Assembly: GCA_041661545.1 (NCBI GenBank)
Contig: JBAZUH010000001.1
Span: 608,148-672,147 of the forward strand
Direction: 5' to 3'
Source of the DNA: Candidatus Staskawiczbacteria bacterium
Lineage (GTDB): Bacteria > Patescibacteriota > Minisyncoccia > Minisyncoccales > Staskawiczbacteraceae
DNA length: 64,000 nucleotides
Within the stretch, counting starts at the first letter, position 1, and each line of letters begins with the position of its first letter. A program made the position numbers and the translations under genes. Positions 20,129 to 55,803 of this stretch are shown in pieces. The notes beneath the pieces are model-generated. The model ran no database searches and had not been told where the DNA came from. It saw nothing but the letters and a program-made list of their open reading frames with translations.

Positions 20129-20575
20129 AGCTATAGAAATTATAACTACTGCAATCTGACTAAAAATTCTCCAAAAAATGTCTGCCCAACCAGGGGAGAT
20201 TTTTTTGTATTTTAGAAAGTGAATTTTTTGGTTTAGAGTATTGTGTTTCTCAGAAAACTTATTTGGCCATAGTGCATTTAAATAAGGAAAAAAATCTGGA
20301 AGTATTGCAACAAAAGCATATAAATAGGCCGTCGGATTATTTTGTGAAAATATTAGAATTAAAATAATTCCAACTAAAATGTCAGAAAAAACTTTTATAA
20401 ATTCCGGTAACGATTTTTTCCAATGTGCTTCTAATATGTTTTTAACTTTATAGTCTATATGGGGGATTAAATCTAATAAATAATGGCTTAAAAAAGCTAG
20501 AAATAAACCTAGAAAAATATTGTTCATGAGAGAGCCCAACACAGCCCCAAATGTCATATGTACTAGTAAAATCAT
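20108..20575 (-). CDS. Hypothetical integral membrane protein (YdjM/DUF-type, tentative)
   Basis: Several TM helices with His/Asp pairs (LSHYLLDLIPHIDY). Confidence 0.4.
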   Translation of the reverse strand: MILLVHMTFGAVLGSLMNNIFLGLFLAFLSHYLLDLIPHIDYKVKNILEAHWKKSLPEFIKVFSDILVGIILILIFSQNNPTAYLYAFVAILPDFFPYLNALWPNKFSEKHNTLNQKIHFLKYKKISPGWADIFWRIFSQIAVVIISIALSIFLR

Positions 20576-23737: not shown

Positions 23738-25453
23738 ATGGAAGAAAAAAGTGAAATCAAGGCATGTCAGAATTGTAAGAGCGAGTTTGTAATAGAGCCC
23801 GATGATTTTGCTTTTTATGAGAAAATGAAAGTGCCTGCGCCAACCTTTTGCCCCGAGTGCAGAACAATCAGGCGTATGACTTGGCGAAATGAGCGTACAC
23901 TCTATAAAAGAAAGTGTGATGCAACTGGCAAAGACATCATTACAATGTTTTCGCCCGAACAACCACTTGTGGTTTACGAAAGAGATTATTGGTGGTCTGA
24001 TAAATGGGACCAGCTTGCCACGGGCCTAGATTATGATTTCTCGAAGTCATTTTTTGAGCAGTTTAAAGAACTATTTGAAAAAGCTCCTTTGCCCAATTTA
24101 GCTAATTCTAATTGCGTAGATTCTGAATATGGAAACCACAATGCGCATTTAAAAAATTGTTATTTAGTGTATGCATCTTATGAGGGAGAAGATTTGTCAT
24201 ATTGCTCAGGAGCGCATAATTGTAAGAATTCTTTTGATTTATATATAGCCGGTAATGATGTGCAATGTTATGAGATTGCTATGGGTGGAGGTTTAAACAA
24301 AGTTTTTTTCTCATATGATAGCGATGAAAGTGTGAGCAGTGCTTTTTTGCATGCCTGTAAAAATGTAATAGACTCTTTGGGTTGTATAAATCTTCGCAAT
24401 AAATCTAATTGTATTTTTAATGAGCAATACACAAAAGAAGAATATTTAAAAGAACGGGCTAAATATGATTTTGGAAGCTATAGAGCAATCAACGATTTTA
24501 AAAAAAAGTTTGCTGAATTTATAAAGCAATTCCCTCGACGTCATGGTTTTACTCATAGGTCACAAAATTGTATTGGAAATATTATTTTCAACTCTAAAAA
24601 TTTATACATGTGCTTTGATATATATGGTAGGGTGGAAGATAGTAAATATGCCATTCATGGATTGGATGGGCAAGATATTTACGATGCTTATGGGTTTGGA
24701 GGAAATGCTAATAATTCTTACGAAGTTGTAGATACGGGCATTGAAGCCACGCGCAATCTTTTTGCTGTTTTTACGCACGCTAGCCAAAACACAAATTACA
24801 CTTATGCATGTCAGAATTCTAAAGATTTATTTGGATGCGTGGGGCTTAGAAACAAACAATATTGTATTTTGAATAAACAATATACTAAAGAAGAATACGA
24901 AGAACTTGTGCCCAAAATAATCCAACACATGAATGATATGCCTTATACAGATAAAAAGGGCAGGGTGTATAAATATGGTGAATTTTTTCCAGCCGAGCTT
25001 TCTCCGTTTGCATATAACGAAACTATAGCCCAAGAATATTATACAAAAACAAAACAAGAAATTTTAGATATTGGTTATAATTGGAAAGAGCCAGATGTAA
25101 AACAATATAAAATTACTATACAGCCAGAAGATTTACCAGACCATATAAAAGATGTTAAAGATGATATTTTAAATCAGGTTGTAGGTTGTGCTCATAAGGG
25201 AGAATGCAATGAGCAGTGTATGGGAGCTTTTAAAATTATTCCTTCAGAGCTTCAATTTTATAGAACAATGAATTTGGCTTTGCCAAGGTTATGTTCTAAT
25301 TGCAGGCATTATAATAGATTGCGACAACGAACTCCATTTAAGTTGTGGGATAGAAAATGTGCCAAGTGTGCAAAAGAAATTAAAACCTCTTACGCCCCAG
25401 ACAGGCCAGAAATAATTTATTGCGAGCAGTGCTACAATGCCGAAGTAGCTTAG
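23738..25453 (+). CDS. Uncharacterised Cys-rich multi-zinc-ribbon protein, paralog 1
   Basis: 571 aa with 27 Cys by my count. The N-terminal module is CQNCK..F.IEPDDFAFYEKMKVPAPTFCPECR..RR. The motif FGC(V/I)(G/N)LRNK..CI(F/L)N.QYTKEEY occurs twice internally. The C-terminal module is LCSNCRHY..R...W.RKCAKC...SYAPDRPEIIYCEQCYNAEVA. Confidence 0.85.
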   Translation: MEEKSEIKACQNCKSEFVIEPDDFAFYEKMKVPAPTFCPECRTIRRMTWRNERTLYKRKCDATGKDIITMFSPEQPLVVYERDYWWSDKWDQLATGLDYDFSKSFFEQFKELFEKAPLPNLANSNCVDSEYGNHNAHLKNCYLVYASYEGEDLSYCSGAHNCKNSFDLYIAGNDVQCYEIAMGGGLNKVFFSYDSDESVSSAFLHACKNVIDSLGCINLRNKSNCIFNEQYTKEEYLKERAKYDFGSYRAINDFKKKFAEFIKQFPRRHGFTHRSQNCIGNIIFNSKNLYMCFDIYGRVEDSKYAIHGLDGQDIYDAYGFGGNANNSYEVVDTGIEATRNLFAVFTHASQNTNYTYACQNSKDLFGCVGLRNKQYCILNKQYTKEEYEELVPKIIQHMNDMPYTDKKGRVYKYGEFFPAELSPFAYNETIAQEYYTKTKQEILDIGYNWKEPDVKQYKITIQPEDLPDHIKDVKDDILNQVVGCAHKGECNEQCMGAFKIIPSELQFYRTMNLALPRLCSNCRHYNRLRQRTPFKLWDRKCAKCAKEIKTSYAPDRPEIIYCEQCYNAEVA

Positions 25454-25476
25454 CAAAATTATAGCCAAGGCTTATT

Positions 25477-25496
25477 AGGTTGCCCACGGGCAACCT
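25477..25496. repeat. Palindrome P2 (AGGTTGCC-CACG-GGCAACCT)
   Basis: 8-bp arms and a 4-nt centre, 21 nt upstream of paralog 2. It is an identical 20-mer to P3. Confidence 0.9.
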
Positions 25497-25517
25497 GAGT
25501 AATTTAAGAAAAAAACA

Positions 25518-27227
25518 ATGGAATATAAATCAGAAAATAAAAATTGTCAGAATTGCAAAAAAGACTTTGAAATAGAGCCCGATGATTTTGCGTTTTATGA
25601 AAAAATGAAAGTACCAGCTCCAACATTTTGTTGGAAATGTAGGTTTCAAAGAAGGATGTCATATAGAAATGAGCGTAAGGCATTTTTTAATACCAGCTTA
25701 AAATCAGGTAAAAAAATCTTTTCTTTATATTCAAAGCAATCAAAAATTCCTATTTATAGCGATGACGAATGGCGCGAAGATGACTGGGATGCAATGCAAT
25801 ATGGTGTTGATTATGATTTTTCAAAACCATTTTTTGAGCAGTTTCATGATTTTTCCTTAACTGTGCCTCATTGGGGTACCTCGGGCGATATCGGCAATTT
25901 GAGATCAGAATTTATAGCTAATTCAGACTATGCCAAAGATTCATATCTTATATTTAATACAAGTCACATGGAGTCGAGTGCATATTGTAACGCATCTTTT
26001 CATTGCAGGGAAAGTTTTGATTCTACGAGTATAACCGATTGTGAGCGATCATATGAATTATTTTGGTCAATGAAATGTTATCGTACGTATTTTTCGTCTC
26101 AGTGTACTGACTGTACAAATGTTTTATTTTCAAAAAACTGTAAGGGGTGCGTAGATTGTTTTGGATGCGTTAATCTGCGCAACAAGTCACACCATATATT
26201 TAATGTTCCTTATTCTAAAGAAGAATATGAGGAAAAAGTGAAATCTTTCTTAATACATATGTTCAGCGGATGTACGGCCATTCAGAAAAAAGCTCATGAG
26301 TTTTGGCTTGGGTCTCCAGTAAAATATATGCAGGGTGTTAATAATGCAAATGTCTTAGGAGAATATATCTCTCATTCGCGCAATGTTTATATGGGGTATT
26401 TGGTTCAAGGGGGAGATAACCTTAGATATTGCCAGCATCAAACAGTTCCTGGGGCTAGTGATTCAATGGACATATCTGTTTGGGGGTCTCCAAATGAATT
26501 ATGTTATGAGAATACAACTTGTGGATATGGATGTTCTAATTCTAAATTTTGCGTAGAATGTTGGCCTGAAAATAGTAAACTGGAATACTGTATGTTTATG
26601 AAAAATTGTGCCGAATGTTTCGGGTGTTTCGGTTTGATTAACAAAAAATATTGTATATTTAATAAGCAATATAGTAAAGAAGATTATCAAAATATCGTTG
26701 AAAGAATAAAAAATCAAATGAATGAAATGCCTTATGTTGATAAAAAGGGCAGAGTGTATAAATATGGCGAGTTTTTTCCTATAGAATTGTCTCCATTTGA
26801 ATATAATACTTCTGTGGTAAACGAATATTTTCCTTTAACGCGAGAACAAGCCATAGAAGAAGGATATAGTTGGGATGATACGGCAAAAACAGAATACGAA
26901 GTTAACATAAGCGCAAATGAATTACCCGATTCAATAAAAGACGTTGAGGATGATATTATTTTAAAGCTAATCGCCTGCACTAATTGTAAAAGAGCGTATC
27001 GCATTATAAAACCCGAATTAGATTTTTTAAGGAAGGAAGGATTGCCGTTGCCAAGGTTGTGCGTTGATTGTCGATATGCAGAGAGAATTTCGCAGAGAAA
27101 TCAGGCTTTTTTATTTCATCGTCATTGTATGAAAGAAGGTTGCACTAATGAATTTGAAACATCTTACGCCCCAGACAGACCAGAAATAATTTATTGCGAG
27201 GCATGCTACAATCAAGAAGTCGCATAA
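25518..27227 (+). CDS. Uncharacterised Cys-rich multi-zinc-ribbon protein, paralog 2
   Basis: 569 aa with the same N-terminal, internal and C-terminal motifs as paralog 1. Confidence 0.85.
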   Translation: MEYKSENKNCQNCKKDFEIEPDDFAFYEKMKVPAPTFCWKCRFQRRMSYRNERKAFFNTSLKSGKKIFSLYSKQSKIPIYSDDEWREDDWDAMQYGVDYDFSKPFFEQFHDFSLTVPHWGTSGDIGNLRSEFIANSDYAKDSYLIFNTSHMESSAYCNASFHCRESFDSTSITDCERSYELFWSMKCYRTYFSSQCTDCTNVLFSKNCKGCVDCFGCVNLRNKSHHIFNVPYSKEEYEEKVKSFLIHMFSGCTAIQKKAHEFWLGSPVKYMQGVNNANVLGEYISHSRNVYMGYLVQGGDNLRYCQHQTVPGASDSMDISVWGSPNELCYENTTCGYGCSNSKFCVECWPENSKLEYCMFMKNCAECFGCFGLINKKYCIFNKQYSKEDYQNIVERIKNQMNEMPYVDKKGRVYKYGEFFPIELSPFEYNTSVVNEYFPLTREQAIEEGYSWDDTAKTEYEVNISANELPDSIKDVEDDIILKLIACTNCKRAYRIIKPELDFLRKEGLPLPRLCVDCRYAERISQRNQAFLFHRHCMKEGCTNEFETSYAPDRPEIIYCEACYNQEVA

Positions 27228-27232
27228 AAAAT

Positions 27233-28939
27233 ATGAATCAAGAATCTGAAAAAAAAATATGTCAGAACTGTAAGCAGGACTTTATTATAGAGCCCGATGA
27301 TTTTGCGTTTTATGAAAAAATGAAGGTGCCCACACCAACCTTTTGCCCCGAGTGCCGGTATATTCGGCGGCTTTTAGATAGAAATGAATATAATTTTTAT
27401 AAACGCAAATGTGACGCAACAGGAGAAAATATTATTTCTATTTATCGCCCAGAGGCGCCGTTTCCAGTTTATAAGCAGGAATATTGGAAGTCGGATGCTT
27501 TTGACGCCACTTCTTATGGCCGTGATTTTGATTTTTCAAAATCATTTTTTGAACAATATGAAGAGCTCCGCCGTGCAGTGCCACATTTAGCGCTTGTAAA
27601 TTCTAACAGCCCAAACAGTGAATATACAAATCAATCTGAAGACAATAAAGATTGTTATATGCTTGTCACTAGTGGCTCAAATGAAAAATGTATGTATGGA
27701 AGTTGGAATCAATCAAAATGTTTTTTTTGCTCTGATTGCTATATGATTGAGCAATGTGAATTTTGCTATGAATCAATTAATTTAACCAAATGTTCTCAAT
27801 GCGCCTTTGCATATGATTGTGCTGATTGTGTAAATGTCTATTTTTCTAAAAATTGTCGAGGTTGTATAAATTGTTTTGGATGCGTGGGTTTAAGAAATAA
27901 GCAGTATTGTTGGTTTAACCAACAATTAAGCAAAGAAGATTACAGTGAAAAAGTTAAACAATTTGGTTGGACTCGCGAGAGAATAAAAAGTGCTCAAAAA
28001 GATTTGGCAGAATTGCAAAACAACTTGCCAGTGAAATATTATCATGGGTCTAAAATTCAAAATTCCACTGGAGACTATTTAGAAAATACTCAGAGGGCAA
28101 GAGTAGCATTTAATTGTCGAGAAAATAAGGACACCTCATATATGCAGGACGCGTGGAACCAAACCGAAGACTGCCGTGATTGCACAGAAATTATTATTGG
28201 CGAGCTGGCATATGAAATTCAAGGAGTTGAAACACCTCATCGGACAATTGTGGCGCGAAGTTGTTTCGGAAGCATCATTGATTCTGCTTATTGCGATATG
28301 TGTTTTGGAGTTAGAAATTGTTTTGGCTGTTTTGGATTAAAGCAAAAAGAATATTGTATTTTAAATAAGCAATATACCAAAAGCGATTATTTAGAATTAA
28401 AAGAGAAGATTATAAGCTACACGAGAAAAACAGGTGAGTGGGGAGAATATTTTCCATCCAATGTTTCGCCGTTTTCTTATAACGAATCAATGGCACAGGA
28501 TTATTTTCCTTTAACAAAAGAAGAAGCTCTCAAAAAAGGTTATTCTTGGTACGATAAACCAGAAACTAATTATTCTATTACGTTAACATCTGATAAATTA
28601 CCAGCAACTATTAACGACACTCAAGATGAAATTGTAAAAGAAATTATTAAATGTAAAACGCAGGAGAATGACAAAGAAAAAAATGATAATCCTCTTTGCG
28701 TGGGAGCCTTTAAATTGACACCGCTCGAATTGATGCTTTATCGTAAACTAAATATTCCTGTACCAGAGTATTGTTTTCCTTGTCGCCGAACAAAACGCTT
28801 TATGTTGCGCAATCCTCGAAGATTATGGCACCGTCATTGTATGAAAGAAGGTTGCACTAATGAATTTGAAACTTCTTATGCTCCAGATAGACCCGAGATA
28901 GTATATTGCGAACAGTGTTACAATGCCGAGGTGGCATAA
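27233..28939 (+). CDS. Uncharacterised Cys-rich multi-zinc-ribbon protein, paralog 3
   Basis: The ATG at 27233 (MNQESEKKICQNCKQDF...) aligns with the other copies. The ORF-track start at 27194 overlaps paralog 2. Confidence 0.85.
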   Translation: MNQESEKKICQNCKQDFIIEPDDFAFYEKMKVPTPTFCPECRYIRRLLDRNEYNFYKRKCDATGENIISIYRPEAPFPVYKQEYWKSDAFDATSYGRDFDFSKSFFEQYEELRRAVPHLALVNSNSPNSEYTNQSEDNKDCYMLVTSGSNEKCMYGSWNQSKCFFCSDCYMIEQCEFCYESINLTKCSQCAFAYDCADCVNVYFSKNCRGCINCFGCVGLRNKQYCWFNQQLSKEDYSEKVKQFGWTRERIKSAQKDLAELQNNLPVKYYHGSKIQNSTGDYLENTQRARVAFNCRENKDTSYMQDAWNQTEDCRDCTEIIIGELAYEIQGVETPHRTIVARSCFGSIIDSAYCDMCFGVRNCFGCFGLKQKEYCILNKQYTKSDYLELKEKIISYTRKTGEWGEYFPSNVSPFSYNESMAQDYFPLTKEEALKKGYSWYDKPETNYSITLTSDKLPATINDTQDEIVKEIIKCKTQENDKEKNDNPLCVGAFKLTPLELMLYRKLNIPVPEYCFPCRRTKRFMLRNPRRLWHRHCMKEGCTNEFETSYAPDRPEIVYCEQCYNAEVA

Positions 28940-28945
28940 AATGTC

Positions 28946-28965
28946 AGGTTGCCCACGGGCAACCT
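28946..28965. repeat. Palindrome P3 (AGGTTGCC-CACG-GGCAACCT)
   Basis: It lies between the paralog 3 stop and the tatD ATG, 9 nt upstream of the latter. Confidence 0.9.
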
Positions 28966-28974
28966 AAAACAATT

Positions 28975-29790
28975 ATGATAATAGATACACACTCACATCT
29001 TAATTTTAAGGCGTATGATGCCGATAGGGCAGAGGTTATAAAGCGCACAAAAGAGGCGGGGGTTGTTTGCATTAATGTGGGCACAAAATATGAGACTTCA
29101 AAACATGCTGTTGAGTTAGCCGAAAAAAATGAGGATATGTATGCTGCAATTGGATTGCATCCAATTCATATTAAAACCGATTTAATGAAATTGCGCATGG
29201 ATTTGGACGAGGGAGGCTTTGCGCCACTTGGTGAAGAGTTTGATGCCGAAAGATATAAAGAGTTAGCGAAATCAAAAAAAGTTGTGGCAATTGGTGAAGT
29301 TGGTTTAGATTATTATTACAAACCAAAAGGCACGGCAAAGAAAGAAAAATTTAAACAATTGCAGAAAGAAATTTTTTTTAAACAATTACAAATGGCCGGC
29401 GAACTTAATTTGCCAGTGATTGTGCATTGCCGAGTTGCATATGGTGATGCTCATGAAATGTTAAACAGTCAAAATTTACAAGGAGTAATTCATTCTTTCA
29501 CGGGAACTATTGAAGAGGCAAAAAAATTTCTTGATTTGGGTTTTTACATTGGAGTTAACGGAATAATTTTTAAGCTTAGTTTAGACGAAGTTGTTAAAAG
29601 CATTCCTTTAGATAAAATTGTAGTTGAAACAGATTGTCCTTATCTCACGCCACCCCAAGCAGGAGCCGAGCGTAACGAACCAATTTTTGTAAAACATGTT
29701 ATTCAAAAAATAGCTGAGCTCAAAGGGCTAAGTTTTGAGGAGGTCGCACAGGCGACCACCGCCAACGCTCAAAAATTGTTTAAAATTTAG
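28975..29790 (+). CDS. tatD: TatD family metal-dependent hydrolase/DNase
   Basis: MIIDTHSHLNF... and VETDCPYLTP. The ORF-track extension back to 28906 only reads through the palindrome. Confidence 0.85.
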   Translation: MIIDTHSHLNFKAYDADRAEVIKRTKEAGVVCINVGTKYETSKHAVELAEKNEDMYAAIGLHPIHIKTDLMKLRMDLDEGGFAPLGEEFDAERYKELAKSKKVVAIGEVGLDYYYKPKGTAKKEKFKQLQKEIFFKQLQMAGELNLPVIVHCRVAYGDAHEMLNSQNLQGVIHSFTGTIEEAKKFLDLGFYIGVNGIIFKLSLDEVVKSIPLDKIVVETDCPYLTPPQAGAERNEPIFVKHVIQKIAELKGLSFEEVAQATTANAQKLFKI

Positions 29791-29879: not shown

Positions 29880-32345
29880 ATGAAGTATAATCCTAAAAAA
29901 ATTGAATCTAAATGGCAGGACAAATGGGCCTCAAAAGGGGTTTTTAAGGCTAAAAATGGCTCTAAAAAGAAGAAATATTATCTTTTGGTAGAGTTTCCTT
30001 ACCCTTCGGGAGACGGTTTGCATGTGGGCCATTGCCGAAGCTTTACTGCTTTTGATATAATTGCCCGAAAACGTAGAATGCAGGGCTATAATGTTTTATA
30101 TCCTATGGGTTGGGATGCTTTTGGTTTGCCTACCGAAAATTATGCTATTAAAAAAGGAGTGCATCCATCTGTGGTTACTAAAAAGAATACGGATAACTTT
30201 AGAAGCCAAATGCAAAATTTAGGATTGTCTTTTGACTGGAGCCGTGAAATTGATACAACAAATCCTAAATATTATAAATGGACACAATGGATTTTTATTC
30301 AATTATTTAAAAATGGGTTAGCTTATAAAAGTAAAATATCTATTAATTGGTGCCCAAAAGATAAAATTGGTTTAGCCAATGAAGAAGTTATAGATGGAAA
30401 ATGCGAAAGATGCGGAACAAAAGTTGAGAAAAGAGAAAAAGATCAATGGATGATAAAAATTACCAATTATGCTGAAAGGTTAATTAAAGATTTAGAAGAA
30501 GTTAATTATTTAGAAAAAATTAAAACTCAACAAAGAGACTGGATTGGACAAAGCCATGGAGCTTTAGTTAAATTTTTTGTTGAAGGAGTAGAAGAGCATT
30601 TAGATGTTTTTACAACTAGAATAGATACAATATTTTCTGGAACATTTTTAATTTTAGCACCTGGTCACAGTTTTATAGATAAATATAAAAATAAAATTGA
30701 AAATATAGAAGAAGTTTTAAAATATAAAGAAGACTCAAAAAATGTTTCTGATGTAGATAGAACTAACCAAGACAAAGAGATAACAGGTGTTCAGCTAAAG
30801 GGAATTGTAGTTAGAAATCCAGCAACCAACGAAGAAATGCCAGTTTGGGTAGCAGACTTTGTTTTAGAACATTATGGAACAGGAGCTGTTTTTGCAGATG
30901 CACATGACAAAAGAGATTTTAAAATGGCTAAGAAATATGGCATACCTTTGCGTACTTCAATAAAACCCCCCGCCTCCGCTGAAGGCTTCGGCGAGGCAAA
31001 GGATGATGAAGAATTTGTTCAAAAGGTCAAAAGATTAGAAGAATGTTATGAAGGGGAGGGAACGCTTTACAACTCTCAACAGTTTGATGGATTAAAATCA
31101 GCAGATGCGAGACCTCAAATAATATCTTGGTTATCTACAAAATGGTTGGCTCAACCTAAGGTTAGCTATAAACTAAGAGATTGGGTTTTTTCTCGCCAGC
31201 ATTATTGGGGTGAGCCAATACCAATGATATTTTGCAAAAAATGTGGATGGCAGCCAGTTAAAGAAAAAGACTTACCAATAACTTTGCCTAATGTAAAAAA
31301 ATATAAACCAACTGATACTGGAGAATCTCCGCTTTCTTTAATTGAGAAATGGGTTAAGACTTCTTGCCCTGAGTGTGGCCAAGATGCAAAAAGAGAAACA
31401 GATACAATGCCAAATTGGGCAGGTTCTAATTGGTACTATTTAAGATATTTAGATAATAAAAATAATAAAAAATTAGCTGACGAAAAATTAGTAAGATATT
31501 GGATGCCAGTTGATTGGTATAATGGAGGAATGGAGCACACAACTTTGCATTTATTATATTCTAGATTTATTTTTAAATTTTTATGGGATATTAAAGCAGT
31601 TCCTGCGAGCGTGGGTTCAGAGCCATATAAAAAAAGAACTTCTCACGGGATGGTTTTGGGTGAGGGGGGAATTAAAATGTCTAAATCTAAGGGAAATGTT
31701 ATAAATCCAGATACAATTATAAAACAATATGGAGCAGACACTTTGCGTATTTATGAAATGTTTATGGGGCCATTTGAGCAAATGATTCCCTGGGATACAA
31801 AAGGTGTTGTTGGATGCAGAAGATTTATAGAAAAAATTTACAATTTGGCTAACTATAAAGTAGCGTCGGGTAAACCTAATATAGAATTAAAAAAATATTT
31901 ACACAAATCTATTAGAAAAGTTAGCGAAGATGTTGAATTGTTAAAATTTAATACAGCAATTAGTTCTATGATGGAATTTGTGAATGCTTGGCAAACTTCA
32001 GCCGAGGGGCTAGACAAAAAAGATTTTGCCGATTTTTTGAGAATATTATCTCCATTTGCACCACATTTAGCAGAAGAGCTTTGGACGGAGACAGATTTAA
32101 AAGATTTATGTTGCATTCAAAAATGGCCAAAGTATGATGAAAAATTAATTGAAGAAAAAAATATACTTTTAATAGTTCAAATAAATGGGAAAGTGCGAGA
32201 TAAAATAGAAATGAAAGCTGGTGCTACACAAAAAGAAGTAGAAAAATTAGTTTTAAAGTCAGAGAAAATAAAAGCATTGATAGGTGACTCCGAAGTAAAA
32301 AAAATAGTCTTTGTTCCAAACAAATTAATTAACATAGTTATATGA
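29880..32345 (+). CDS. leuS: Leucine--tRNA ligase
   Basis: MKYNPKKIESKWQDKWA, FPYPSGDGLHVGH (HIGH), KMSKSKGN. Confidence 0.95.
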   Translation: MKYNPKKIESKWQDKWASKGVFKAKNGSKKKKYYLLVEFPYPSGDGLHVGHCRSFTAFDIIARKRRMQGYNVLYPMGWDAFGLPTENYAIKKGVHPSVVTKKNTDNFRSQMQNLGLSFDWSREIDTTNPKYYKWTQWIFIQLFKNGLAYKSKISINWCPKDKIGLANEEVIDGKCERCGTKVEKREKDQWMIKITNYAERLIKDLEEVNYLEKIKTQQRDWIGQSHGALVKFFVEGVEEHLDVFTTRIDTIFSGTFLILAPGHSFIDKYKNKIENIEEVLKYKEDSKNVSDVDRTNQDKEITGVQLKGIVVRNPATNEEMPVWVADFVLEHYGTGAVFADAHDKRDFKMAKKYGIPLRTSIKPPASAEGFGEAKDDEEFVQKVKRLEECYEGEGTLYNSQQFDGLKSADARPQIISWLSTKWLAQPKVSYKLRDWVFSRQHYWGEPIPMIFCKKCGWQPVKEKDLPITLPNVKKYKPTDTGESPLSLIEKWVKTSCPECGQDAKRETDTMPNWAGSNWYYLRYLDNKNNKKLADEKLVRYWMPVDWYNGGMEHTTLHLLYSRFIFKFLWDIKAVPASVGSEPYKKRTSHGMVLGEGGIKMSKSKGNVINPDTIIKQYGADTLRIYEMFMGPFEQMIPWDTKGVVGCRRFIEKIYNLANYKVASGKPNIELKKYLHKSIRKVSEDVELLKFNTAISSMMEFVNAWQTSAEGLDKKDFADFLRILSPFAPHLAEELWTETDLKDLCCIQKWPKYDEKLIEEKNILLIVQINGKVRDKIEMKAGATQKEVEKLVLKSEKIKALIGDSEVKKIVFVPNKLINIVI
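30966..31001. repeat. GC-rich hairpin mini-element, in frame inside leuS (copy I3)
   Basis: cccccgcctccgctgaaggcttcggcgaggcaaagg encodes PPASAEGFGEAK. GCCTC(c)GCTGAA-ggc-TTCGGCGAGGC folds into about 11 bp with one bulge. Confidence 0.6.
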
Positions 32346-33974: not shown

Positions 33975-34547
33975 ATGAATAATAAAACTTTTAATTTAAT
34001 TTTAACAGGGGTTGGTGGGCAAGGAATAATTACTTTATTACAAGTAATTGATGAAGCAGCGGTTGTTGAGGGGTTAGACGTAAAGTCATCTGAGCTTCAT
34101 GGTTTATCACAAAGAGGGGGAAGTGTTGAGGCACATGTAAGATTTGGTAAAAAAGTTTATTCTCCAATGGTGTCTAACGGGCAAGCAGATTTAATTTTAG
34201 CATTAGAAACTCTTGAAGGCTTAAGAGAATCAGCTAAGGCTGGTAAACAAACAAAACTTTTGGTTAATGAATATATCTTGCCATTAATGGGCGCTCCAGC
34301 AAAAGAAGAAATTATAAAACAATTAAAGGCCACACAAAATGATTTATATTTAGTGCCAGCTTCAGCTGATTGCAGAGAAAAGTTACAAAATGAAGTTGTT
34401 TGCACTTTGTATATGGTGGGGTATTCAGTTGCTAAAAAATTGATGCCATTGAAAAAAGAATCTGTATTAACTGCAATAAAAAATGTTATTCCTGAAAAAT
34501 ATTTAGATTTAAATATTAAAGCATTTGAATTAGGATATAATGGTTAA
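33975..34547 (+). CDS. iorB: Indolepyruvate oxidoreductase beta subunit-like
   Basis: LTGVGGQGIITL, and its position directly after iorA. Confidence 0.7.
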   Translation: MNNKTFNLILTGVGGQGIITLLQVIDEAAVVEGLDVKSSELHGLSQRGGSVEAHVRFGKKVYSPMVSNGQADLILALETLEGLRESAKAGKQTKLLVNEYILPLMGAPAKEEIIKQLKATQNDLYLVPASADCREKLQNEVVCTLYMVGYSVAKKLMPLKKESVLTAIKNVIPEKYLDLNIKAFELGYNG

Positions 34548-35292
34548 AAAAGTTATTATAGCTGTTGCGGGGCAAGGAACCCGTATGCAGGAACTGACAA
34601 AAGATAAATCAAAACATTTGATTGAAGTAAATGGTAAGCCATTTTTGTTTTATGTTTTAGATAATTTGACTAAAGCAGGCTATGATGATTTTACTCTAGT
34701 GGTGGGCTTTGAAGCAGAATTAATTAAAAAGTTTGTGGATGATTACGGTTTTAAAGTAAAGATTATCAATCAGTTTGAAATTTTAGGACCTAAAGAAAAA
34801 ATTTATGGAACCGCTTGCCCTTTAATGTGTGTAGAGAATACTCAAGAGTCATTTTTATATATTTCTGGTGATAATTTTTACTCGGTAGAAGATTTGAAAC
34901 AAGCTAATATTGATGACGAATTTAACTATATTTTTGGCGCAGAAAGTATGCATCCGGAAGACTTTGGGGTTTTGGTGCCCTTCGACTTGGCTCAGGGCAG
35001 GCCCGGCGGTGAATTTTTGAAAGAAATTGTTGAAAAACCTAGGTTGCCCATGGGCAACCTGATTAATGTAAGTTTGTATAAGTTTACGCCAGAAATTTTT
35101 AAAAAAATATCTCAAATAGAAAAATCATCTCGCGGAGAGTACGAAATTACAGATGCGGTTTCTTTATTGGCTCAAGAAAAAAAGGTTAAGATAAAAAAAA
35201 TGAAGGGCTTTTGGATAGACTTTGGTAGGCCTGAAGATGTTAAAAAACTAGAAGATTTTCTAAATGGAAATAATAAAGAAGAACAAAAATAA
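34540..35292 (+). CDS. Sugar-1-phosphate nucleotidyltransferase
   Basis: AVAGQGTRMQELTKDKSKHLIEVNGKP and EKP..P..NLIN..LYKF. Confidence 0.75.
   Translation: MVKKVIIAVAGQGTRMQELTKDKSKHLIEVNGKPFLFYVLDNLTKAGYDDFTLVVGFEAELIKKFVDDYGFKVKIINQFEILGPKEKIYGTACPLMCVENTQESFLYISGDNFYSVEDLKQANIDDEFNYIFGAESMHPEDFGVLVPFDLAQGRPGGEFLKEIVEKPRLPMGNLINVSLYKFTPEIFKKISQIEKSSRGEYEITDAVSLLAQEKKVKIKKMKGFWIDFGRPEDVKKLEDFLNGNNKEEQK
34976..35011. repeat. GC-rich mini-element, in frame (copy I4)
   Basis: gtgcccttcgacttggctcagggcaggcccggcggtg encodes VPFDLAQGRPGG. Its first 23 nt match the ybeY copy at 21 of 23 positions. Confidence 0.75.
35041..35060. repeat. Palindrome P4 (AGGTTGCC-CATG-GGCAACCT) inside a CDS
   Basis: A perfect 20-nt palindrome with the same arms as P2 and P3. 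It encodes RLPMGNL of the nucleotidyltransferase. Confidence 0.9.
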
Positions 35293-35824
35293 TATAAATA
35301 AAATAATTACTGCTCTTAAAAAAGGGGCAGTTTTGGTTTTTCCTACAGATACAGTTTATGGATTGGTTTGTGACGCTAGTAATAAAAAAGCTGTAGAAAA
35401 AATATTTAAAATTAAGAAAAGAGATAAATCAAAGCCGTTGGGAGTTTTTGTAAAAGACATCAAAACCGCTTTTAAAATTGCTGTTGTAAAAAAAGAATAC
35501 GAAAAGTTTTTGAAGAATAATAAAAATACAGTAATTTTAAAGTCCCGCCTTCGCCAAGGTTTCGGCGGGCGAAGTAAGAAAACAATAGGAATTAGAATTC
35601 CTAAATACAAATTTTTAAATTTAATTTTAGATGAATTTAAGAAACCAATTGCTCAAACTTCGGCAAATATTTCGGGCAAGCCCGCAACTACAAAAATAAA
35701 AGAAGTTTTAAAACAGCTTGGAAAAGAAAATATTTTAATTATTGATGCTGGTGATTTGATAAAAAATAAACCATCAGCCATAATAGATTTAACGGGCGCT
35801 AAAAATAAAATTATAAGAAAATAA
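35264..35824 (+). CDS. tsaC: L-threonylcarbamoyladenylate synthase (TsaC/YrdC family)
   Basis: GAVLVFPTDTVYGLVCDASN...KIKKRDKSKPL...SANISG. Confidence 0.85.
   Translation: MEIIKKNKNNINKIITALKKGAVLVFPTDTVYGLVCDASNKKAVEKIFKIKKRDKSKPLGVFVKDIKTAFKIAVVKKEYEKFLKNNKNTVILKSRLRQGFGGRSKKTIGIRIPKYKFLNLILDEFKKPIAQTSANISGKPATTKIKEVLKQLGKENILIIDAGDLIKNKPSAIIDLTGAKNKIIRK
35544..35574. repeat. GC-rich hairpin mini-element, in frame inside tsaC (copy I5)
   Basis: cccgccttcgccaaggtttcggcgggcgaag encodes SRLRQGFGGRS. Possible pairings are CCCGCC/GGCGGG or CTTCGCC/GGCGAAG. Confidence 0.65.
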
Positions 35825-42933: not shown

Positions 42934-43077
42934 TTTTTTTATTAATTTAGTGAATAATTATTATTTTTTACATCTTTCATTACTATATAATAGCACGAGA
43001 AACCAAAATTATTGCAATTTTTGTATTTTATAGTAGAGTATAAGCTAGCAACTTGTCAACTCTTAGAAAATAAACAT

Positions 43078-44085
43078 ATGAAAGCACGCAGAATAGATCC
43101 GCATGTTCATTGCAGAGATCAAGGATGGGCGTATAAGTCTACCATAGCTGAAACACTGAAACTTGCTGAATTGCAAGGTATTTGTGCCATTTTTGATATG
43201 CCCAACAATAATCCGCCAACTCTTCGCATAGAAGATGTTCTGCAAAGGTTAGCGTTGGTGCCGGAAGATTCTCCGGTGCAATATTTTACTTATATCGGCC
43301 TTGCCGCGGATAACCCAGACCAATGGGCAGAAGCCGTAAGGTGTTGGAATAATATTCCCCAAGTAATTGGCATTAAAATGTTTGCCGGTCATTCAACGGC
43401 AAACATGGGTATTATTGAGCCCGAACAGCAGAGGGCAGTTTATCGGTTTTTAACAGAGGTTGATTATCGAGGCGTGTTGGCTGTGCATTGCGAAAAGGAA
43501 TCGTTGCTTAGACCAGCCCTTTGGGATCCGAAAAATCCTGTAAGTCATTCTTTGGCGCGACCGCCCGAAGCTGAGGCAGAATCAGTACGTGACCAAATTT
43601 TATTTGCTGAGGGGGCAGGATTTTGTGGAAAACTACATATTTGCCATGTTTCTACCGAGAAGGCTTTGAGAGTTATAGCCAGAGCAAAAGATAAGCGATC
43701 TCTGCCCATGCGCGTTACCTGCGAGGTTACTCCTCATCATCTTCTTTATTCAACAGACATGCTTGAACACCTTGGCCAACTGGGTCAACTAAGCCATTGG
43801 TTCAAGGTGAATCCTCCAATTCGCATAGAACAAGACCGATTAGCTTTATTGGGGGCTATTATATCTGATAACGTGGTGGATTGGATTGCTACAGACAATG
43901 CCCCACATACGATGCAAGAGAAACTTGGTCCGCCTTATACATCGGGCTTTCCTTCTCTCTATTTATATCAGGGATTGCTGGCGCACTTGCGAGAATTAGG
44001 GGTTTCCGAGGAGAAAATCGATGACCTGACATTTTATAGCATCATTAGAGCGTTCAATCCAAAGCTCAATCACTTGATTGCTTAA
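43078..44085 (+). CDS. Dihydroorotase-like amidohydrolase
   Basis: RIDPHVHCRDQG metal-binding motif, with later HCE and ATDNAPH. The ATG at 43078 is preferred. The gene is clearly more GC-rich than its neighbours. Confidence 0.65.
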   Translation: MKARRIDPHVHCRDQGWAYKSTIAETLKLAELQGICAIFDMPNNNPPTLRIEDVLQRLALVPEDSPVQYFTYIGLAADNPDQWAEAVRCWNNIPQVIGIKMFAGHSTANMGIIEPEQQRAVYRFLTEVDYRGVLAVHCEKESLLRPALWDPKNPVSHSLARPPEAEAESVRDQILFAEGAGFCGKLHICHVSTEKALRVIARAKDKRSLPMRVTCEVTPHHLLYSTDMLEHLGQLGQLSHWFKVNPPIRIEQDRLALLGAIISDNVVDWIATDNAPHTMQEKLGPPYTSGFPSLYLYQGLLAHLRELGVSEEKIDDLTFYSIIRAFNPKLNHLIA

Positions 44086-44123: not shown

Positions 44124-46136
44124 TTATTCGCGGAATTTTTCTATGCTTTCAGCCATCATTTGAGAATATAAATTTAAACCAATTTTGTTTATGGCGCCCG
44201 ATTGTTCTTTGCCTAAAATATTTCCCGCGCCTCTTAATTCTAAGTCTCTAATTGCAATTCTATATCCCGCACCCAACTCTTGAGCATCTTCTAGCGCCTT
44301 TAATCTATCTTTTGCCAGAGGAGTTAAGTTTTTTTCTTCATACATAAAATACGCAAAACTTTTTGTTGTAGACCTGCCTACGCGTCCTCTTATTTGGTGT
44401 GCTTGAGAAAGTCCTAGTTTAGTAGCATCTTCTATAATAATTGTATTTGCATTAGAAAAGTCTATTCCGTTTTCAATAATTGTTGTTGCAATTAAAACAT
44501 TTATTTTCTCATTTTGGAATTCATCTATTATTTTCATTATATGTTTTTCTGCCATTTTTCCATGGATTGTTCCAATTTTTGCTTTTGGACACAACTTTTT
44601 TAATTCTTTTGCTTTAGTTTCAATAGTTTGCACCCTGTTGTGTAAAAAATAAACTTGGCCTTTTCTTTTTAATTCGGCAATAATAATATTTTTAATATTT
44701 TTTTCGCTATATGGTAAAACATTAGTTTTAATAGATTGTCTGCCAATTGGTGGTGTTTGTATCAAGCTGATATGTTTAAGAGAAGAAAGAGCCAAATAAA
44801 TAGTACGAGGTATTGGTGTGGCCGATAAGCTTAAAATATCTAAACTGGTTTTTAATTTACGCAGACGTTCTTTTTGTTTAACGCCAAATTTTTGTTCGTC
44901 ATCAATAATTAAAAGTTGTAAATTCTTGAATTCTACATCTTTAGACAAAAGTCTGTGTGTGCCAATTAAAATATCAATGTGCCCATCTTTTAGGTCTTTA
45001 ATAACTTTTTTTTGCTCTGTTTTTGTATGTAGTCCAGAAATTACGCCAATTTTTACCGGTAGATTTTTAAACCTTTCTTTAAAGGAATTATAATGCTGAT
45101 TAGCTAAAATTGCTGTTGGGCATATAAGAGCCGTTTGTCTGTTGTTGGCTACAGCCATTAAAGCTGTTCTCATAGCCACTTCTGTTTTTCCAAAACCAAC
45201 ATCACCACAAACAATTCTATCCATTGGTTTTGTTTTCTTTAAATCTTGTTTAATGTCTTCCATTGTTTGAATTTGATCTGGTGTCTCTTGAAAAGTAAAG
45301 CTAGATTTAAATTGTGATTCTAACTCTTTATCTTCTATATAAGGGGCCCTTTCGGTAGTTTCTTTTTGAGCGTATAGTTGTAATAATTCTTTAGCTAATT
45401 TCTCAACGTTTTCTTTTATAGCCCGTTTTGTTTTTTGCCATATAGAAGATCCAAGTCTTGAAACTTTAGGATCTTGAAAGCCAACATATCTAGACAATTT
45501 TCTTTCTAATCCAAGGGGTATATAAAGCTTATCTTCTTTATCATATTGTAATACATAGTAATCATTAGTTTGTCCCGCTTCGAGCGGGATCCCGCCCTGG
45601 CGGGAAAATTTTTCTATTCCTATAAATTGTCCTATGCCATGATCTAGATGAACTAAATAGTCTCCGGGTTTTAATCCTTTTAGCTCGGAAAATATTTTTT
45701 GAGATTTTATTTTCTTTTTTAAAATTTCTCTTGATTTTTTAAATTTTTCTTCAGAAAATTTTGAAGGGTAAAATTTTTTTTCATTTAATAATTGTATGTT
45801 GTCTACTTCGTTTCCTAAAAAATCTATTCTTACTGCTTGCAGGGCGTTAATGGGGAATATATCAATAATTCCTCCTTTTTGTGAAAACTCACCAGGGTCG
45901 GTAACCTTGAATACTTTTTCATAACCCATTTCATCAAGTTTTCTTAAAAATTGTGAAAATTGAAAGCTGTGATTTTTTTGTAAAAAAATTATATTATCTT
46001 CAAAAAAATTTTGTGAATGTCTGGCTTCTAATATTTCTTGTAAATTGTCTTGAAACCAAAAAGCCTGCTTTTCTAAAAAGTAGGGGGTAATGCCAACTAT
46101 CAAAATTTGGTTTAAATCATTAGCTGTTATATTCAT
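44124..46136 (-). CDS. mfd: Transcription-repair coupling factor, short form (Mfd-like)
   Basis: CarD/TRCF RNAP-interaction motif GDYLVHLDHGIGQFIG, plus SF2 helicase motifs GDVGFGKTEVA, DDEQKFG and QIRGRVGR. At 670 aa it lacks the long UvrB-homology N-terminus. Confidence 0.8.
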   Translation of the reverse strand: MNITANDLNQILIVGITPYFLEKQAFWFQDNLQEILEARHSQNFFEDNIIFLQKNHSFQFSQFLRKLDEMGYEKVFKVTDPGEFSQKGGIIDIFPINALQAVRIDFLGNEVDNIQLLNEKKFYPSKFSEEKFKKSREILKKKIKSQKIFSELKGLKPGDYLVHLDHGIGQFIGIEKFSRQGGIPLEAGQTNDYYVLQYDKEDKLYIPLGLERKLSRYVGFQDPKVSRLGSSIWQKTKRAIKENVEKLAKELLQLYAQKETTERAPYIEDKELESQFKSSFTFQETPDQIQTMEDIKQDLKKTKPMDRIVCGDVGFGKTEVAMRTALMAVANNRQTALICPTAILANQHYNSFKERFKNLPVKIGVISGLHTKTEQKKVIKDLKDGHIDILIGTHRLLSKDVEFKNLQLLIIDDEQKFGVKQKERLRKLKTSLDILSLSATPIPRTIYLALSSLKHISLIQTPPIGRQSIKTNVLPYSEKNIKNIIIAELKRKGQVYFLHNRVQTIETKAKELKKLCPKAKIGTIHGKMAEKHIMKIIDEFQNEKINVLIATTIIENGIDFSNANTIIIEDATKLGLSQAHQIRGRVGRSTTKSFAYFMYEEKNLTPLAKDRLKALEDAQELGAGYRIAIRDLELRGAGNILGKEQSGAINKIGLNLYSQMMAESIEKFRE
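45573..45605. repeat. GC-rich tandem hairpin mini-element, in frame inside mfd (copy I6)
   Basis: TCCCGC-ttcga-GCGGGA followed directly by TCCCGC-cctg-GCGGGA. It encodes SRQGGIPLEAGQ on the minus strand. Confidence 0.7.
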
Positions 46137-49004: not shown

Positions 49005-49397
49005 ATGGAAACCGGCTCAGCAAATAAGATTCAAAAATTTACAGATTTGTATGCTTGGCAAGAAGGCCATAAGTTGGTTTTGATGATTTATAAAGAAACA
49101 GATAAGTTCCCCGACAAAGAAAGATATAGTATTATTGATCAAATGCGTAGGGCGGTAGTTTCTGTAACCTCTAATATAGCAGAAGGTTTTTCACGAAAGT
49201 CTTCAAAAGAAAAAAATAGATTCTACTGCATGGCTCAAGCGTCATTGGTGGAATTACAAAATCAATTGATTATTTCGAGAGACGTGGGCTATTTATTAAA
49301 TAGTGAATTTAAAAAAATCGCTGACCAATCTATAACAACTAGTAAGCTTTTAAGCGGTCTTTTAAGGGCAACAAAAGATAAAAAATTTGAAGTTTAA
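49005..49397 (+). CDS. Four-helix-bundle protein (23S rRNA intervening-sequence protein family)
   Basis: FTDLYAWQEGHKLVLMIYKETDKFPDKERYSIIDQMRRAVVSVTSNIAEGFSR. Confidence 0.8.
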   Translation: METGSANKIQKFTDLYAWQEGHKLVLMIYKETDKFPDKERYSIIDQMRRAVVSVTSNIAEGFSRKSSKEKNRFYCMAQASLVELQNQLIISRDVGYLLNSEFKKIADQSITTSKLLSGLLRATKDKKFEV

Positions 49398-49994: not shown

Positions 49995-50588
49995 ATGGCA
50001 AGAAAAACTCGTAAAAAAATAGAGAAAAAAATAGAGAAGAAGGTAGATAGAAGAGTAAATAGAAACTATATTTTGATAGGCGGAGTTTTATTGCTTGTGG
50101 TGATAGGTTGTTTTTTTGCATATAAATATTTTATAAAACCACATAATTATATAATTAAAAATCAATATTATAGTTTTAGTATTCAAACTCCTAGCACCTG
50201 GATAGCAGAAGAAAAAATCTTATATTCAGAAAATAATATTTCCCAAATTCTAACTAAATGTAAGAATGATAAATCAAAAAATAATATTGATTATAAAATA
50301 GGAGAGTTTAGATTTAAAAGCCAAAAATATCCTCAGGAGCTAGAAATATTTCAATTTCCAGCAGAGGGCTTGCCCAGTGGAATTATTTTTGAAATTTCGG
50401 TTTACTGCGTTACTGAAAGTTCTAAGAAAATTGGTAGCAGTTTAGTTTTTTTTCATGATGATTTTAAATACGTAATAACTGAACATAATTATATATCACC
50501 CAAAGACAAGGGGGCAGAAAAGAAGATAGCCAAAAATTATCAAATATTATTTAATAAAATAATTTCTAGTTTTAAAATTACCAAATGA
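49995..50588 (+). CDS. Hypothetical membrane-anchored protein
   Basis: A basic N-terminus followed by one TM helix (ILIGGVLLLVVIGCFFAY). No recognisable domain. Confidence 0.45.
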   Translation: MARKTRKKIEKKIEKKVDRRVNRNYILIGGVLLLVVIGCFFAYKYFIKPHNYIIKNQYYSFSIQTPSTWIAEEKILYSENNISQILTKCKNDKSKNNIDYKIGEFRFKSQKYPQELEIFQFPAEGLPSGIIFEISVYCVTESSKKIGSSLVFFHDDFKYVITEHNYISPKDKGAEKKIAKNYQILFNKIISSFKITK

Positions 50589-51043
50589 AGATTGAAATAA
50601 ATAATTTAACTGGGCATCCTATATTGAGCCGAGCTGTGGATAAAAAGATTTTTTCCACAGTTGCAAAAATCGTATTAAAAGGCGAAAATAGAAAAACAGA
50701 AACATTATCTTTGGCATTTGTAAGTAAAAGCGAGATAAAAAAACTTAATAAAAAATTTCGTAAAAAGAATAAAGCTACAGATGTTCTTTCATTTGAGTTA
50801 GATGTGCCCTTCGGCTTCGCTCAGGGTAAAAACAAGTTTTTAGGGGAAATTATAATTTGCCCAGAAGTTGTTAGAGATAATGCTAAAAAATATAATATTT
50901 CAGTAAAGCAAGAAATGACTAAAATGCTTATCCATGGAATACTTCATTTGTGTGGATATGACCATGAGAAGTCGAAAAAGGATGAGAAAATAATGGAAGA
51001 AAAACAAGAAAAATATTTAGCTGAAATTAACCCGGTTAAATAA
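50585..51043 (+). CDS. ybeY: rRNA maturation endoribonuclease YbeY
   Basis: HGILHLCGYDHE zinc motif and TDVLSF. Confidence 0.9.
   Translation: MKIEINNLTGHPILSRAVDKKIFSTVAKIVLKGENRKTETLSLAFVSKSEIKKLNKKFRKKNKATDVLSFELDVPFGFAQGKNKFLGEIIICPEVVRDNAKKYNISVKQEMTKMLIHGILHLCGYDHEKSKKDEKIMEEKQEKYLAEINPVK
50804..50826. repeat. GC-rich mini-element, in frame inside ybeY (copy I7)
   Basis: gtgcccttcggcttcgctcaggg encodes VPFGFAQG. It matches copy I4 at 21 of 23 positions. Confidence 0.75.
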
Positions 51044-55752: not shown

Positions 55753-55779
55753 AGTATAATCAAACTGTGATAGTCTTTC

Positions 55780-55803
55780 TCAGGTTACCATACGGTAACC
55801 TGA
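55780..55803. repeat. Palindrome P5 (TCAGGTTACC-ATAC-GGTAACCTGA)
   Basis: 10-bp arms. It lies between the nrdD terminator and the methyltransferase gene. Confidence 0.9.

Follow-up and report, generated by a model that had tools for sequence, protein, structure and literature searches.

A candidate copy-and-paste repeat of 24-25 nt, in frame within unrelated genes of Candidatus Staskawiczbacteria

Introduction

How does one short GC-rich sequence come to lie, in frame, inside unrelated genes of an AT-rich genome? The question is raised by a 64-kb stretch of DNA, here called the window, from a metagenome-assembled genome (MAG) of Candidatus Staskawiczbacteria, a member of the Patescibacteria or Candidate Phyla Radiation (CPR), with a GC content of 32.7%. 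A preliminary description of this DNA had pointed to copies of a GC-rich mini-element in the gene of a nucleotidyltransferase (NTase), in ybeY and in a third gene, and had ascribed them to an inserted DNA element rather than to convergent protein evolution. We give a probability of roughly 55% to the reading that the three core copies represent a discrete, non-coding, non-autonomous copy-and-paste repeat of 24-25 nt, filtered by selection.

Results

Three copies of one element in the window

The core pattern GCCCTTCGRCTKSGCTCAGGR has exactly three matches in the window, also when up to three mismatches are tolerated, and the mean over 100 shuffles was 0.00; chance is excluded for these core copies. 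The shorter pattern CCCTTCGRCNNNGCTCAGGR likewise has three window copies. The matches, and the units that contain them, are located as follows:

34977-34997, plus strand: core match in the NTase gene (open reading frame, ORF, 34540-35292; Pfam NTP_transferase), coding VPFDLAQGR
34978-35001, plus strand: unit CCCTTCGACTTGGCTCAGGGCAGG in the NTase gene, 24 nt with 67% GC, coding PFDLAQGR
50804-50827, plus strand: unit GTGCCCTTCGGCTTCGCTCAGGGT in ybeY (50585-51043, Pfam YbeY), coding VPFGFAQG; pattern match at 50806-50826 (plus strand), core at 50807-50826
61779-61799, minus strand: unit in reverse orientation, the minus strand reading GCCCTTCGACTGCGCTCAGGA, in the DUF6938 gene (61744-63063), within its N-terminal tail, coding SPERSRRA

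The sequence common to the three copies, hereafter family A, spans about 21-24 nt, and the flanks are unrelated. All three are in frame, free of stops and located inside ORFs with Pfam support. The preliminary description had named the same three copies as one element, which our counts support. It had placed the first of them at 34976; the copy is present, and the gtgccc quoted in that description begins at 34975, a trivial offset.

A discrete unit with conserved ends across many phyla

A profile was built from 255 non-redundant copies, whose sources are IMG/VR contigs and members of more than 15 phyla. The consensus of 24-25 nt is CCCTTCGRC-T-N-C-GCTCAGGG-CAGG(C), with sharp ends CCCTTCGRCTNCGCTCAGGGCAGG[C]. 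On the 5' side there is no conservation up to CCC. On the 3' side the five positions C-A-G/A-G-C (CAGGC) are kept and background is reached from position +6. These boundaries coincide with the ends of the insertion/deletion (indel) in the NTase gene described below, and in five cases tandem copies lie 24 nt apart.

The preliminary description would have been undermined by a lack of further copies, and these were found, their ends conserved, not only in relatives and other CPR groups but also in viral contigs and more than 15 other phyla. More specifically, CCCTTCGRCNNNGCTCAGGR matches at least 120 IMG/VR contigs, compared with five for a reversed control pattern of equal composition. These contigs range from 31 to 74% GC, several carry two to four copies, and the full 25-mer CCCTTCGRCTNCGCTCAGGGCAGGC is present in 33 IMG/VR contigs. 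Among species-representative genomes at least 120 loci match, and carriers overall span 27-74% GC. The matches listed include Acidobacteriota, Chloroflexota, Bacteroidota, Spirochaetota, Planctomycetota, Verrucomicrobiota, Pseudomonadota, Actinomycetota, Nitrospirota, Cyanobacteriota and Armatimonadota, together with the CPR groups Saccharibacteria, Andersenbacteria and Curtissbacteria. The unit is absent from 5,426 complete genomes of E. coli.

By our estimate, chance alone would produce a few hundred matches to a bare 20-nt pattern in the 596-Gb species-genome collection, so that match counts there are weak evidence. For a discrete unit in the species genomes, conservation of the flank is decisive: CAGGC follows in 41 of 127 matches, and the central triplet is mostly T-N-C. 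Furthermore, at the ten variable positions copies on the same contig agree in 63% of comparisons and copies on different contigs in 46% (permutation p < 0.0005), which suggests that copies propagate within genomes.

Carriers include the cultured strains Treponema saccharophilum DSM 2985, Edaphobacter aggregans DSM 19364 and Nodularia harveyana, and the complete genomes of cultured Trichlorobacter lovleyi, Sphingomonas parapaucimobilis and Microcystis aeruginosa NIES-2481, as well as complete plasmids and chromids of isolates. Cyanobacterial carriers belong to Nostoc, Nodularia, Microcoleus, Planktothrix and Microcystis. This distribution bears on the concern that a window taken from a MAG might owe its inserts to assembly or binning, for example to chimeric reads from GC-rich organisms. 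Such an artefact is already contradicted by recurrence in many samples and in the complete genomes of cultured strains; the NTase gene with its insert was also assembled independently in a Logan contig, and the inserts preserve the reading frame. We give this explanation almost no weight.

One DNA sequence, five peptide readings

The consensus is open in five of its six frames, which read PFDFAQGR, LRLRSGQ, PSTSLRA, PALSEVEG and CPERSRR, and the sixth frame contains TGA. Peptides of all five open frames were found in proteins with strong Pfam support:

PFDxAQG: NTase, YbeY and an ORF of Saccharibacteria
TLRLRSGQA: ATP-dependent DNA ligase of Curtissbacteria
HPSTSLRA: Mg-chelatase/ComM-like ATPase
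VPSTTLRV: Mu-type phage portal protein
SPERSRRA: DUF6938 protein
PALSVVEG: IS91-like transposase of Trichlorobacter

The same DNA in several frames and both orientations within unrelated proteins indicates that the element acts at the DNA level, as the preliminary description had proposed. The opposite view holds that these are ancestral variable loops under convergent selection for a small peptide rich in Pro, Gly, Ala and Gln, with the likeness in DNA as a by-product. The inserts do fall in loops whose length varies in all lineages. However, this view is already contradicted by one DNA sequence that yields five different peptides in different proteins; the unit also occurs in non-coding DNA and in the loop of a non-coding RNA, and its codons are GC-rich against a background of 33% GC. 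Convergence of this kind is very improbable. Strings such as FDKLRAG, LRSGQA, LSLSKG and PERSRRV are familiar in 'hypothetical proteins' of many phyla, in keeping with the distribution of the unit.

The Curtissbacteria ligase gene (locus L189, ORF 1188-3095) holds, besides TLRLRSGQA, an insert of about 35 residues, VIARNSKNDEAILEDRSPRGVYTEFVERARGDK. The Pfam adenylation domain is matched in two stretches, with the insert apparently between them. This insert looks like another GC-repeat family read in frame.

Filled and empty sites in orthologs

Filled and empty alleles were compared by codon alignment of the window with five syntenic loci of relatives (L122, L123, L124, L245 and L246). Alignment of each host protein with its orthologs had been proposed in the preliminary description as the way to recognise lineage-specific insertion. 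Most NTase orthologs and about half of the YbeY orthologs lack the residues in question, and at the DNA level the filled and empty alleles of the two genes differ by exactly 24 or 21 nt.

In the NTase, the majority of orthologs read FGVLI-xDG-EFLKEIIEKP with no insert, and about 11 of 120 homologs have 7-10 extra residues at this point. The variants found at this one site are PFDLAQG, PFDFAQG, PFDAVQG, PFGMAQG, PARSAGG and VPPRAGSRYGG. Nine other homologs carry GC-type inserts (LGSGQA, AGQA, LGGQ) at a second site directly after EKP. The codon alignment shows a difference of exactly 24 nt, occupied by CCCTTCGACTTGGCTCAGGGCAGG in the window and by CCCTTCGACGCGGTTCAGGGTAAA in L122 and empty in L123 and L124; no target-site duplication is seen. 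Parsimony requires at least seven changes at this site.

For YbeY, about half of the homologs read SFELNE-KDYLGEI without an insert, and the remainder carry various inserts in that loop, including PFGFAQG, SAQGGPASGW, PPTRKASEGQ and others in other lineages. The unit is filled in the window and in L246 (AAACCCTTCGACGCAGCTCAGGGT) and empty in the syntenic L245. In two closer filled/empty pairs, with 87-90% nucleotide identity, the insert is a clean 21 nt and no flank is duplicated, as in GAA|CCCTTCGGCTCAACTCAGGGC|AAG versus GAA|AAG. Since different GC-rich families occupy one and the same loop in both YbeY and the NTase, the inserts probably arose in independent events.

In DUF6938, about 15 of 120 orthologs have a PERSRRA-like N-terminal tail, and those without it are 8-10 residues shorter. 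The tails form a series (PEQSRRA, PERNRRA, PEQSKKA, KEQSKKA) that can be read as an old copy decaying under AT-biased mutation.

A 29-nt exact run, GCTCAGGGTAAAAACAAGTTTTTAGGGGA, is shared by the window (50820-50848) and L246 (10235-10263) and comprises the 3' half of the ybeY insert and sequence downstream of it. Outside this run the two ybeY genes are 72% identical, and overall the window is nearer to the empty L245 allele. The run suggests lateral transfer of a filled ybeY segment. A degenerate 25-nt pattern derived from it, CTCAGGGTAAAAAYAARTTTTTAGG, which crosses the edge of the ybeY insert, was found in JGI metagenomes only on L246's own contig, and on this result a longer dispersed unit was rejected. 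A target consensus was also rejected: the bases 5' of the insert vary by site (GGTG, AATA, TGTG, GAAA, TGAG, TGAA).

Locations that tolerate added length

AlphaFold2 models of the NTase and YbeY were used to locate the inserts in the proteins, with confidence given by the predicted local distance difference test (pLDDT). The NTase insert separates strand 143-147 from strand 159-165 and has the lowest internal pLDDT of the model, whose mean is 92. In YbeY (mean pLDDT 85), it lies in loop 72-86, with pLDDT below 50 at residues 74-76. The models thus place the window inserts in predicted beta-hairpin turns of low confidence, in agreement with the surface loops that the preliminary description had anticipated.

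Outside proteins, similar placements were observed. Copies at the apex of inverted repeats with a stem of at least 8 bp make up 3.5%, compared with 0.3% in permuted controls, an enrichment of about tenfold. The unit is also found in an rRNA operon, in the spacers that separate tRNA genes, and Bacteroidota copies are mostly intergenic. In a Flavobacterium MAG (L229) it is a terminal-loop insertion, relative to the covariance-model consensus, in two Flavo-1 RNAs (RF01705). Membership of the unit in the Flavo-1 consensus was ruled out, the L229 unit being merely a loop insert, and the window has no Flavo-1 match even at E-values up to 10. Loops, hairpin tips and spacers are sites where added length does little harm. 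The pattern of sites fits frequent insertion followed by selection, and a target preference may also contribute.

The same placement, at hairpin apices and in spacers between tRNA genes, also speaks for a functional cis-element, that is, a binding site or RNA signal of a widely conserved factor (in mRNA stability, pausing, processing or nucleoid organisation, for example) that is selected wherever it arises or is transferred. The strong conservation across phyla points in the same direction, as does the NTase insert, which is identical at 17 of 24 positions between the window and L122, whose host genes are 70% identical. Against a function of this kind, copies decay to AT-rich or ordinary residues, as in the DUF6938 tails and in YbeY loops of the SFGTVQD type; most orthologs of each host gene lack the unit; orientation and frame vary freely among copies; neither a significant fold nor an Rfam family was found for it; and E. 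coli does without it. We consider a cis-element rather improbable.

Other GC-rich patches and possible templated repair

The window contains 27 patches with at least 17 G+C per 24 nt. An approximate hand count over the six syntenic genomes gave about 36 indels of four codons or more, of which about 16 reach 55% GC or higher in host genes of 27-38% GC. The patches that the preliminary description had listed as diverged relatives of the element, in ileS, leuS, tsaC and mfd, are present with the peptides it quoted; none matches the core pattern, and they belong to other families. The main patches and inserts are:

30969-31001, plus strand: leuS insert CCCGCCTCCGCTGAAGGCTTCGGCGAGGCAAAG, 33 nt, coding PASAEGFGEAK, of the hairpin type; clean insertion relative to L123 and L124; fold z = -2.2
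35543-35575, plus strand: tsaC/Sua5 patch TCCCGCCTTCGCCAAGGTTTCGGCGGGCGAAGT, coding SRLRQGFGGRS, in a variable region; sequence swapped, length unchanged
45570-45605, minus strand: mfd patch SRQGGIPLEAGQ, a double hairpin and net 18-nt insertion, absent in L122, L124 and L245; fold z = -3.1
8758-8782, plus strand: ileS patch containing CGCCAAGGCTTCG, coding SAKASLGMP, in a length-variable region of IleRS
10722-10760, plus strand: ileS patch SAQGGPASGWEVE, in a length-variable region
20180-20194, minus strand: insert coding PGWAD in a hypothetical gene, 15 nt with 67% GC, absent in L123 and L124

Several of these other-family patches form real hairpins (z from -2.2 to -3.1), and several end in GGCGGGCA(G/A)GC, resembling the 3' end of family A. 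Some recur in other genes. The ileS sequence CGCCAAGGCTTCG reappears in a 24-nt ftsZ insert of L246, CGCCAAGGCTTCGGCGGGCAAGCA, and the peptide type of the second ileS patch occupies the YbeY loop elsewhere (AQGGPASGW-type in homologs P0170, P0134, P0152 and P0199). The porA gene of L124 has a 30-nt insert, CCCGCCTTCGTTGAAGCTTCGGCGGGCAGG, of the same family as the window tsaC patch; the two have only the ends CCC...GGCGGGC(A/G) in common with the core element. An 18-nt GC-rich insert is found in comEC of L245. The ileS comparison was made with 50%-cluster representatives only and shows length-variable regions, nothing finer on lineage-specific insertion. Taken together, the leuS, tsaC, mfd and ileS patches appear to represent the same phenomenon, in GC-rich families separate from that of the core element.

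Within the NTase gene, 40 nt farther downstream than the GC unit, positions 35041-35060 form a perfect palindrome of 20 nt, AGGTTGCCCATGGGCAACCT. Its region is identical at 30 of 33 positions to two intergenic hairpins (25476-25508 and 28945-28977), and it replaces seven ortholog codons, K-[DE]-F-V-G-[DN]-L, with length unchanged. Its appearance is that of a templated patch. Related sequences are located at 55762-55803, 56634-56675 and 56873-56914, and a second hairpin family, TCAGGTTACCRTAYGGTAACCTGA, is present in three intergenic copies.

These patches raise the possibility of an enzyme-free route. Breaks in AT-rich DNA would be primed on GC-rich microhomologies of another repeat copy, about 20-35 nt would be copied and the ends rejoined, giving insertions or equal-length replacements, with GC-rich repeats annealing best. 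The palindrome with its intergenic counterparts and the tsaC patch, both without change of length, fit such templated repair. So do the codons beside the NTase and mfd inserts, which have likewise been changed to GC-rich ones, the 29-nt identical run across the ybeY insert edge, the lack of target-site duplication and of a linked enzyme, and a gene at 150-1673 in the window for a PolX-type DNA polymerase (Pol beta thumb/palm and PHP domain). Patch repair leaves unexplained, however, why the interior and both ends of a 24-25-nt unit are conserved in genomes of 27-74% GC from more than 15 phyla, and it leaves the 24-nt tandem arrays unexplained. Furthermore, copying by microhomology should leave ragged boundaries, and the observed ones are sharp. 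Templated repair is a serious rival explanation, though an unlikely one.

Search for an enzyme, a template or an RNA family

Family A folds at most into a GCCCU/AGGGC stem of 5 bp with a 12-13-nt loop (z = +1.2, +1.1 and +1.8 versus shuffles). No Rfam family was found at the patches, either at the gathering score or at E-values up to 10. As a template, stable RNAs were rejected, since in local alignments of families A, B and C with the window's transfer-messenger RNA (tmRNA) and tRNA-Leu the motifs scored no better than shuffled ones; the same holds for rRNA (cyanobacterial 23S, 5S and the 3' part of 16S). The tmRNA gene of the window is located at 3839-4186 on the minus strand (Rfam 109.5 bits).

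The search for a linked gene of a transposase, reverse transcriptase or nuclease found none. In Trichlorobacter the copies are part of the reading frame of an IS91-like transposase gene and are passengers, not element ends, so that this link was rejected. In Sphingomonas, a small GIY-YIG gene with a flanking inverted motif pair has one copy at its 3' end. A GIY-YIG nuclease was rejected as mobiliser, as tblastn and a motif regular expression found no other adjacent GIY-YIG gene in 2.17 Mb of motif-bearing loci. In its own right, this locus (L252, Sphingomonas parapaucimobilis plasmid, 2090-2545) encodes a 106-residue GIY-YIG nuclease between nrdR and an RNA methyltransferase gene, with a long inverted motif pair upstream and a C-terminus formed by the family-A copy (ALRLRSGRTRE). 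It looks like a compact mobile cassette.

Other features of the window and relatives

At 49005-49397, between a 72-residue bS21-like ORF and yqeY, the window carries a gene whose product is a 23S-rRNA-intervening-sequence protein (Avd-like four-helix bundle, PF05635, E = 5e-33). Because this position is empty in the syntenic L245 and L246, the gene is a lineage-specific insertion. Four paralogous ORFs of about 570 residues are present, three in tandem (23738-25453, 25518-27227 and 27194-28939) and one 29 kb away (56933-58654). They share DNA blocks of 60-80% identity and a conserved C-terminal Cys motif, and the three that were scanned against Pfam gave no match. The ORFs 61159-61674 (minus strand) and 43012-44085 (plus strand) have a high GC content for this genome, 50% and 44% respectively, and homologs in L245. 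Neither has a Pfam match, and the region 61159-61674 folds better than shuffles (z = -3.4). At L123 13696-15143, five small ORFs are enclosed by two GC-rich motifs in inverted arrangement (CTTCGGCGAGCGGGC ... GCGGGGCGGGC); the block may be a small cassette or a structure resembling a MITE (a miniature transposable element with inverted repeats).

Discussion

If the three core copies are a copy-and-paste repeat, the unit would be copied to new sites, without duplication of the target, by a transposition-like, sequence-specific step carried out in trans. A non-autonomous repeat acted on in trans is the account with most support, because the ends are exact, the target is not duplicated, copies within a genome resemble each other and independent events recur at the same loops. 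On landing in a gene, a copy would add eight small residues (Gly, Ala, Pro, Gln, Ser, Arg) and keep the frame, because five of the six frames are open and its length is divisible by three. Selection would retain copies only at length-tolerant places, namely beta-hairpin turns, N-terminal tails, apical loops of RNA or DNA hairpins and spacers, and AT-biased mutation would erode them after insertion. Mobility itself is something we infer from patterns of presence and absence: the filled and empty alleles of the NTase gene and ybeY at the DNA level, which the preliminary description had proposed to look for in related genomes. The other GC patches of the window would be products of a like process on other repeat families.

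Several observations weigh against this reading. The 64-kb window holds just three family-A copies. The closest filled/empty pairs are only 87-90% identical and no fresh insertion was caught, so that recent mobility stays unproven. Repeated hits at one codon could also reflect recombination between lineages, an option to which the 29-nt exact run shared by the window and L246 points. The equal-length replacements, in tsaC and at 35041-35060, are more like templated patching than insertion. Since it forms no convincing hairpin, family A lacks the structure used by the machineries of repetitive extragenic palindromic (REP) sequences and of the IS200/IS605 type. Finally, the 150 ORFs adjoining the unit at 120 of the matching genome loci fall into 134 Pfam families, none of which is enriched or has more than three members, and no transposase was found among the window ORFs scanned.

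Should the copy-and-paste reading be true, a repeat without coding capacity and almost without structure shapes essential proteins of CPR bacteria, including tRNA synthetases, YbeY, Mfd and sugar nucleotidyltransferases. Its recurrence from Acidobacteriota to cyanobacteria and phages raises the question of what copies 24 nt with exact ends. The five peptide readings (PFDxAQG, LRLRSGQ, PSTxLRA, PALSxVEG and PERSRRA) would explain many of the puzzling low-complexity segments, and of the small ORFs that are spurious, in annotated metagenomes. Sites in their filled and empty forms could serve as clean strain-level markers, and insertion sites mark where essential proteins tolerate eight added residues. 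A broader proposal, which we regard as doubtful and offer tentatively, is that the unit is an undescribed mobile DNA of many phyla and among the smallest known, spread in trans by conserved machinery and perhaps moved from phylum to phylum by phages. A length divisible by three and a sequence nearly free of stops would allow it to settle in protein loops and the tips of RNA hairpins, and together with sister families it would be behind much of the change in loop length seen in essential proteins of CPR bacteria with streamlined, AT-rich genomes.

Comparison with known repeat systems

The preliminary description had likened the element to Rickettsia palindromic elements (RPEs) and to mitochondrial GC clusters, and both comparisons are useful as analogies, not as memberships. 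Yeast mitochondrial GC clusters or 'byp' elements, a subject attributed to Lang et al. (PNAS, 2014), are said to break the frame and to be bypassed by the ribosome. The two systems share short GC-rich islands that spread in very AT-rich genomes and are able to land in coding sequence. The window copies, in contrast, are in frame and stop-free, with read-through expected, whereas byps are organellar and their sequences are unrelated. RPE-1 is palindromic, about 100-150 bp long and not known outside Rickettsia. The present unit, found in a patescibacterial host and in many phyla, measures 24-25 nt and is non-palindromic, so that size and family differ, while in-frame insertion in unrelated intact genes is common to both. 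According to the passages of PMC3733652 and PMC3184786 that cite Ogata et al. (2000), RPEs lie in frame in many unrelated and probably still functional genes.

REPs of the GTAG and CGTC types measure 20-40 bp, and some lie in frame in genes of known proteins (Di Nocera et al. 2013, PMC3733652). The intragenic hosts include tRNA synthetases, DNA ligase and repair genes, and CGTC REPs have no dedicated transposase (PMC3733652). What defines a REP is an imperfect palindrome whose stem measures 8-9 bp and whose loop measures 4-5 nt, together with an unpaired head, GTAG or CGTC, at one end. A further mark is a RAYT (Y1 transposase) gene in the genome that has the repeats on its flanks; the window ORFs scanned include no transposase. 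Short repeats in frame within genes are thus a shared trait, but family A has a stem of at most 5 bp and the longer loop given above, ends in CCCTTCG and CAGGC, and shows no conserved bases outside these ends. REPs are also mainly extragenic, whereas all three window copies are intragenic. BRE is another known in-frame small repeat. MITEs are marked by duplication of the target site and by inverted repeats of 15-30 bp at their termini; here only CCCT...AGGG (4 nt) pairs, and no duplication is seen. A search of full-text literature returned nothing relevant on the peptide and DNA signatures or on in-frame GC-rich inserts in CPR bacteria.

The likeness to the small dispersed repeats (SDRs) of heterocyst-forming cyanobacteria, SDR1-8, lies in size and behaviour. 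SDRs are reportedly dispersed units of 21-27 nt, apparently mobile, without target duplication or a linked enzyme, and are said to lie inside genes, inside other repeats and beside heptamer tandem repeats. They are also said to be confined to one cyanobacterial subgroup. The unit described here has 24-25 nt by tandem spacing, flank profile and indel size, leaves no target-site duplication, is nested in another repeat in one locus (L132) and adjoins heptamer repeats in Nodularia and Nostoc loci. It differs in its occurrence in more than 15 phyla and viral contigs, and family A has no supported hairpin. The SDR work is cited in PMC3116915 as Elhai et al. 2008 (Genome Res 18:1484). Both in-frame small repeats and dispersed insertional repeats of very small size are already known, and the unit resembles SDRs, intragenic REPs and RPEs while falling under the definition of none of them.

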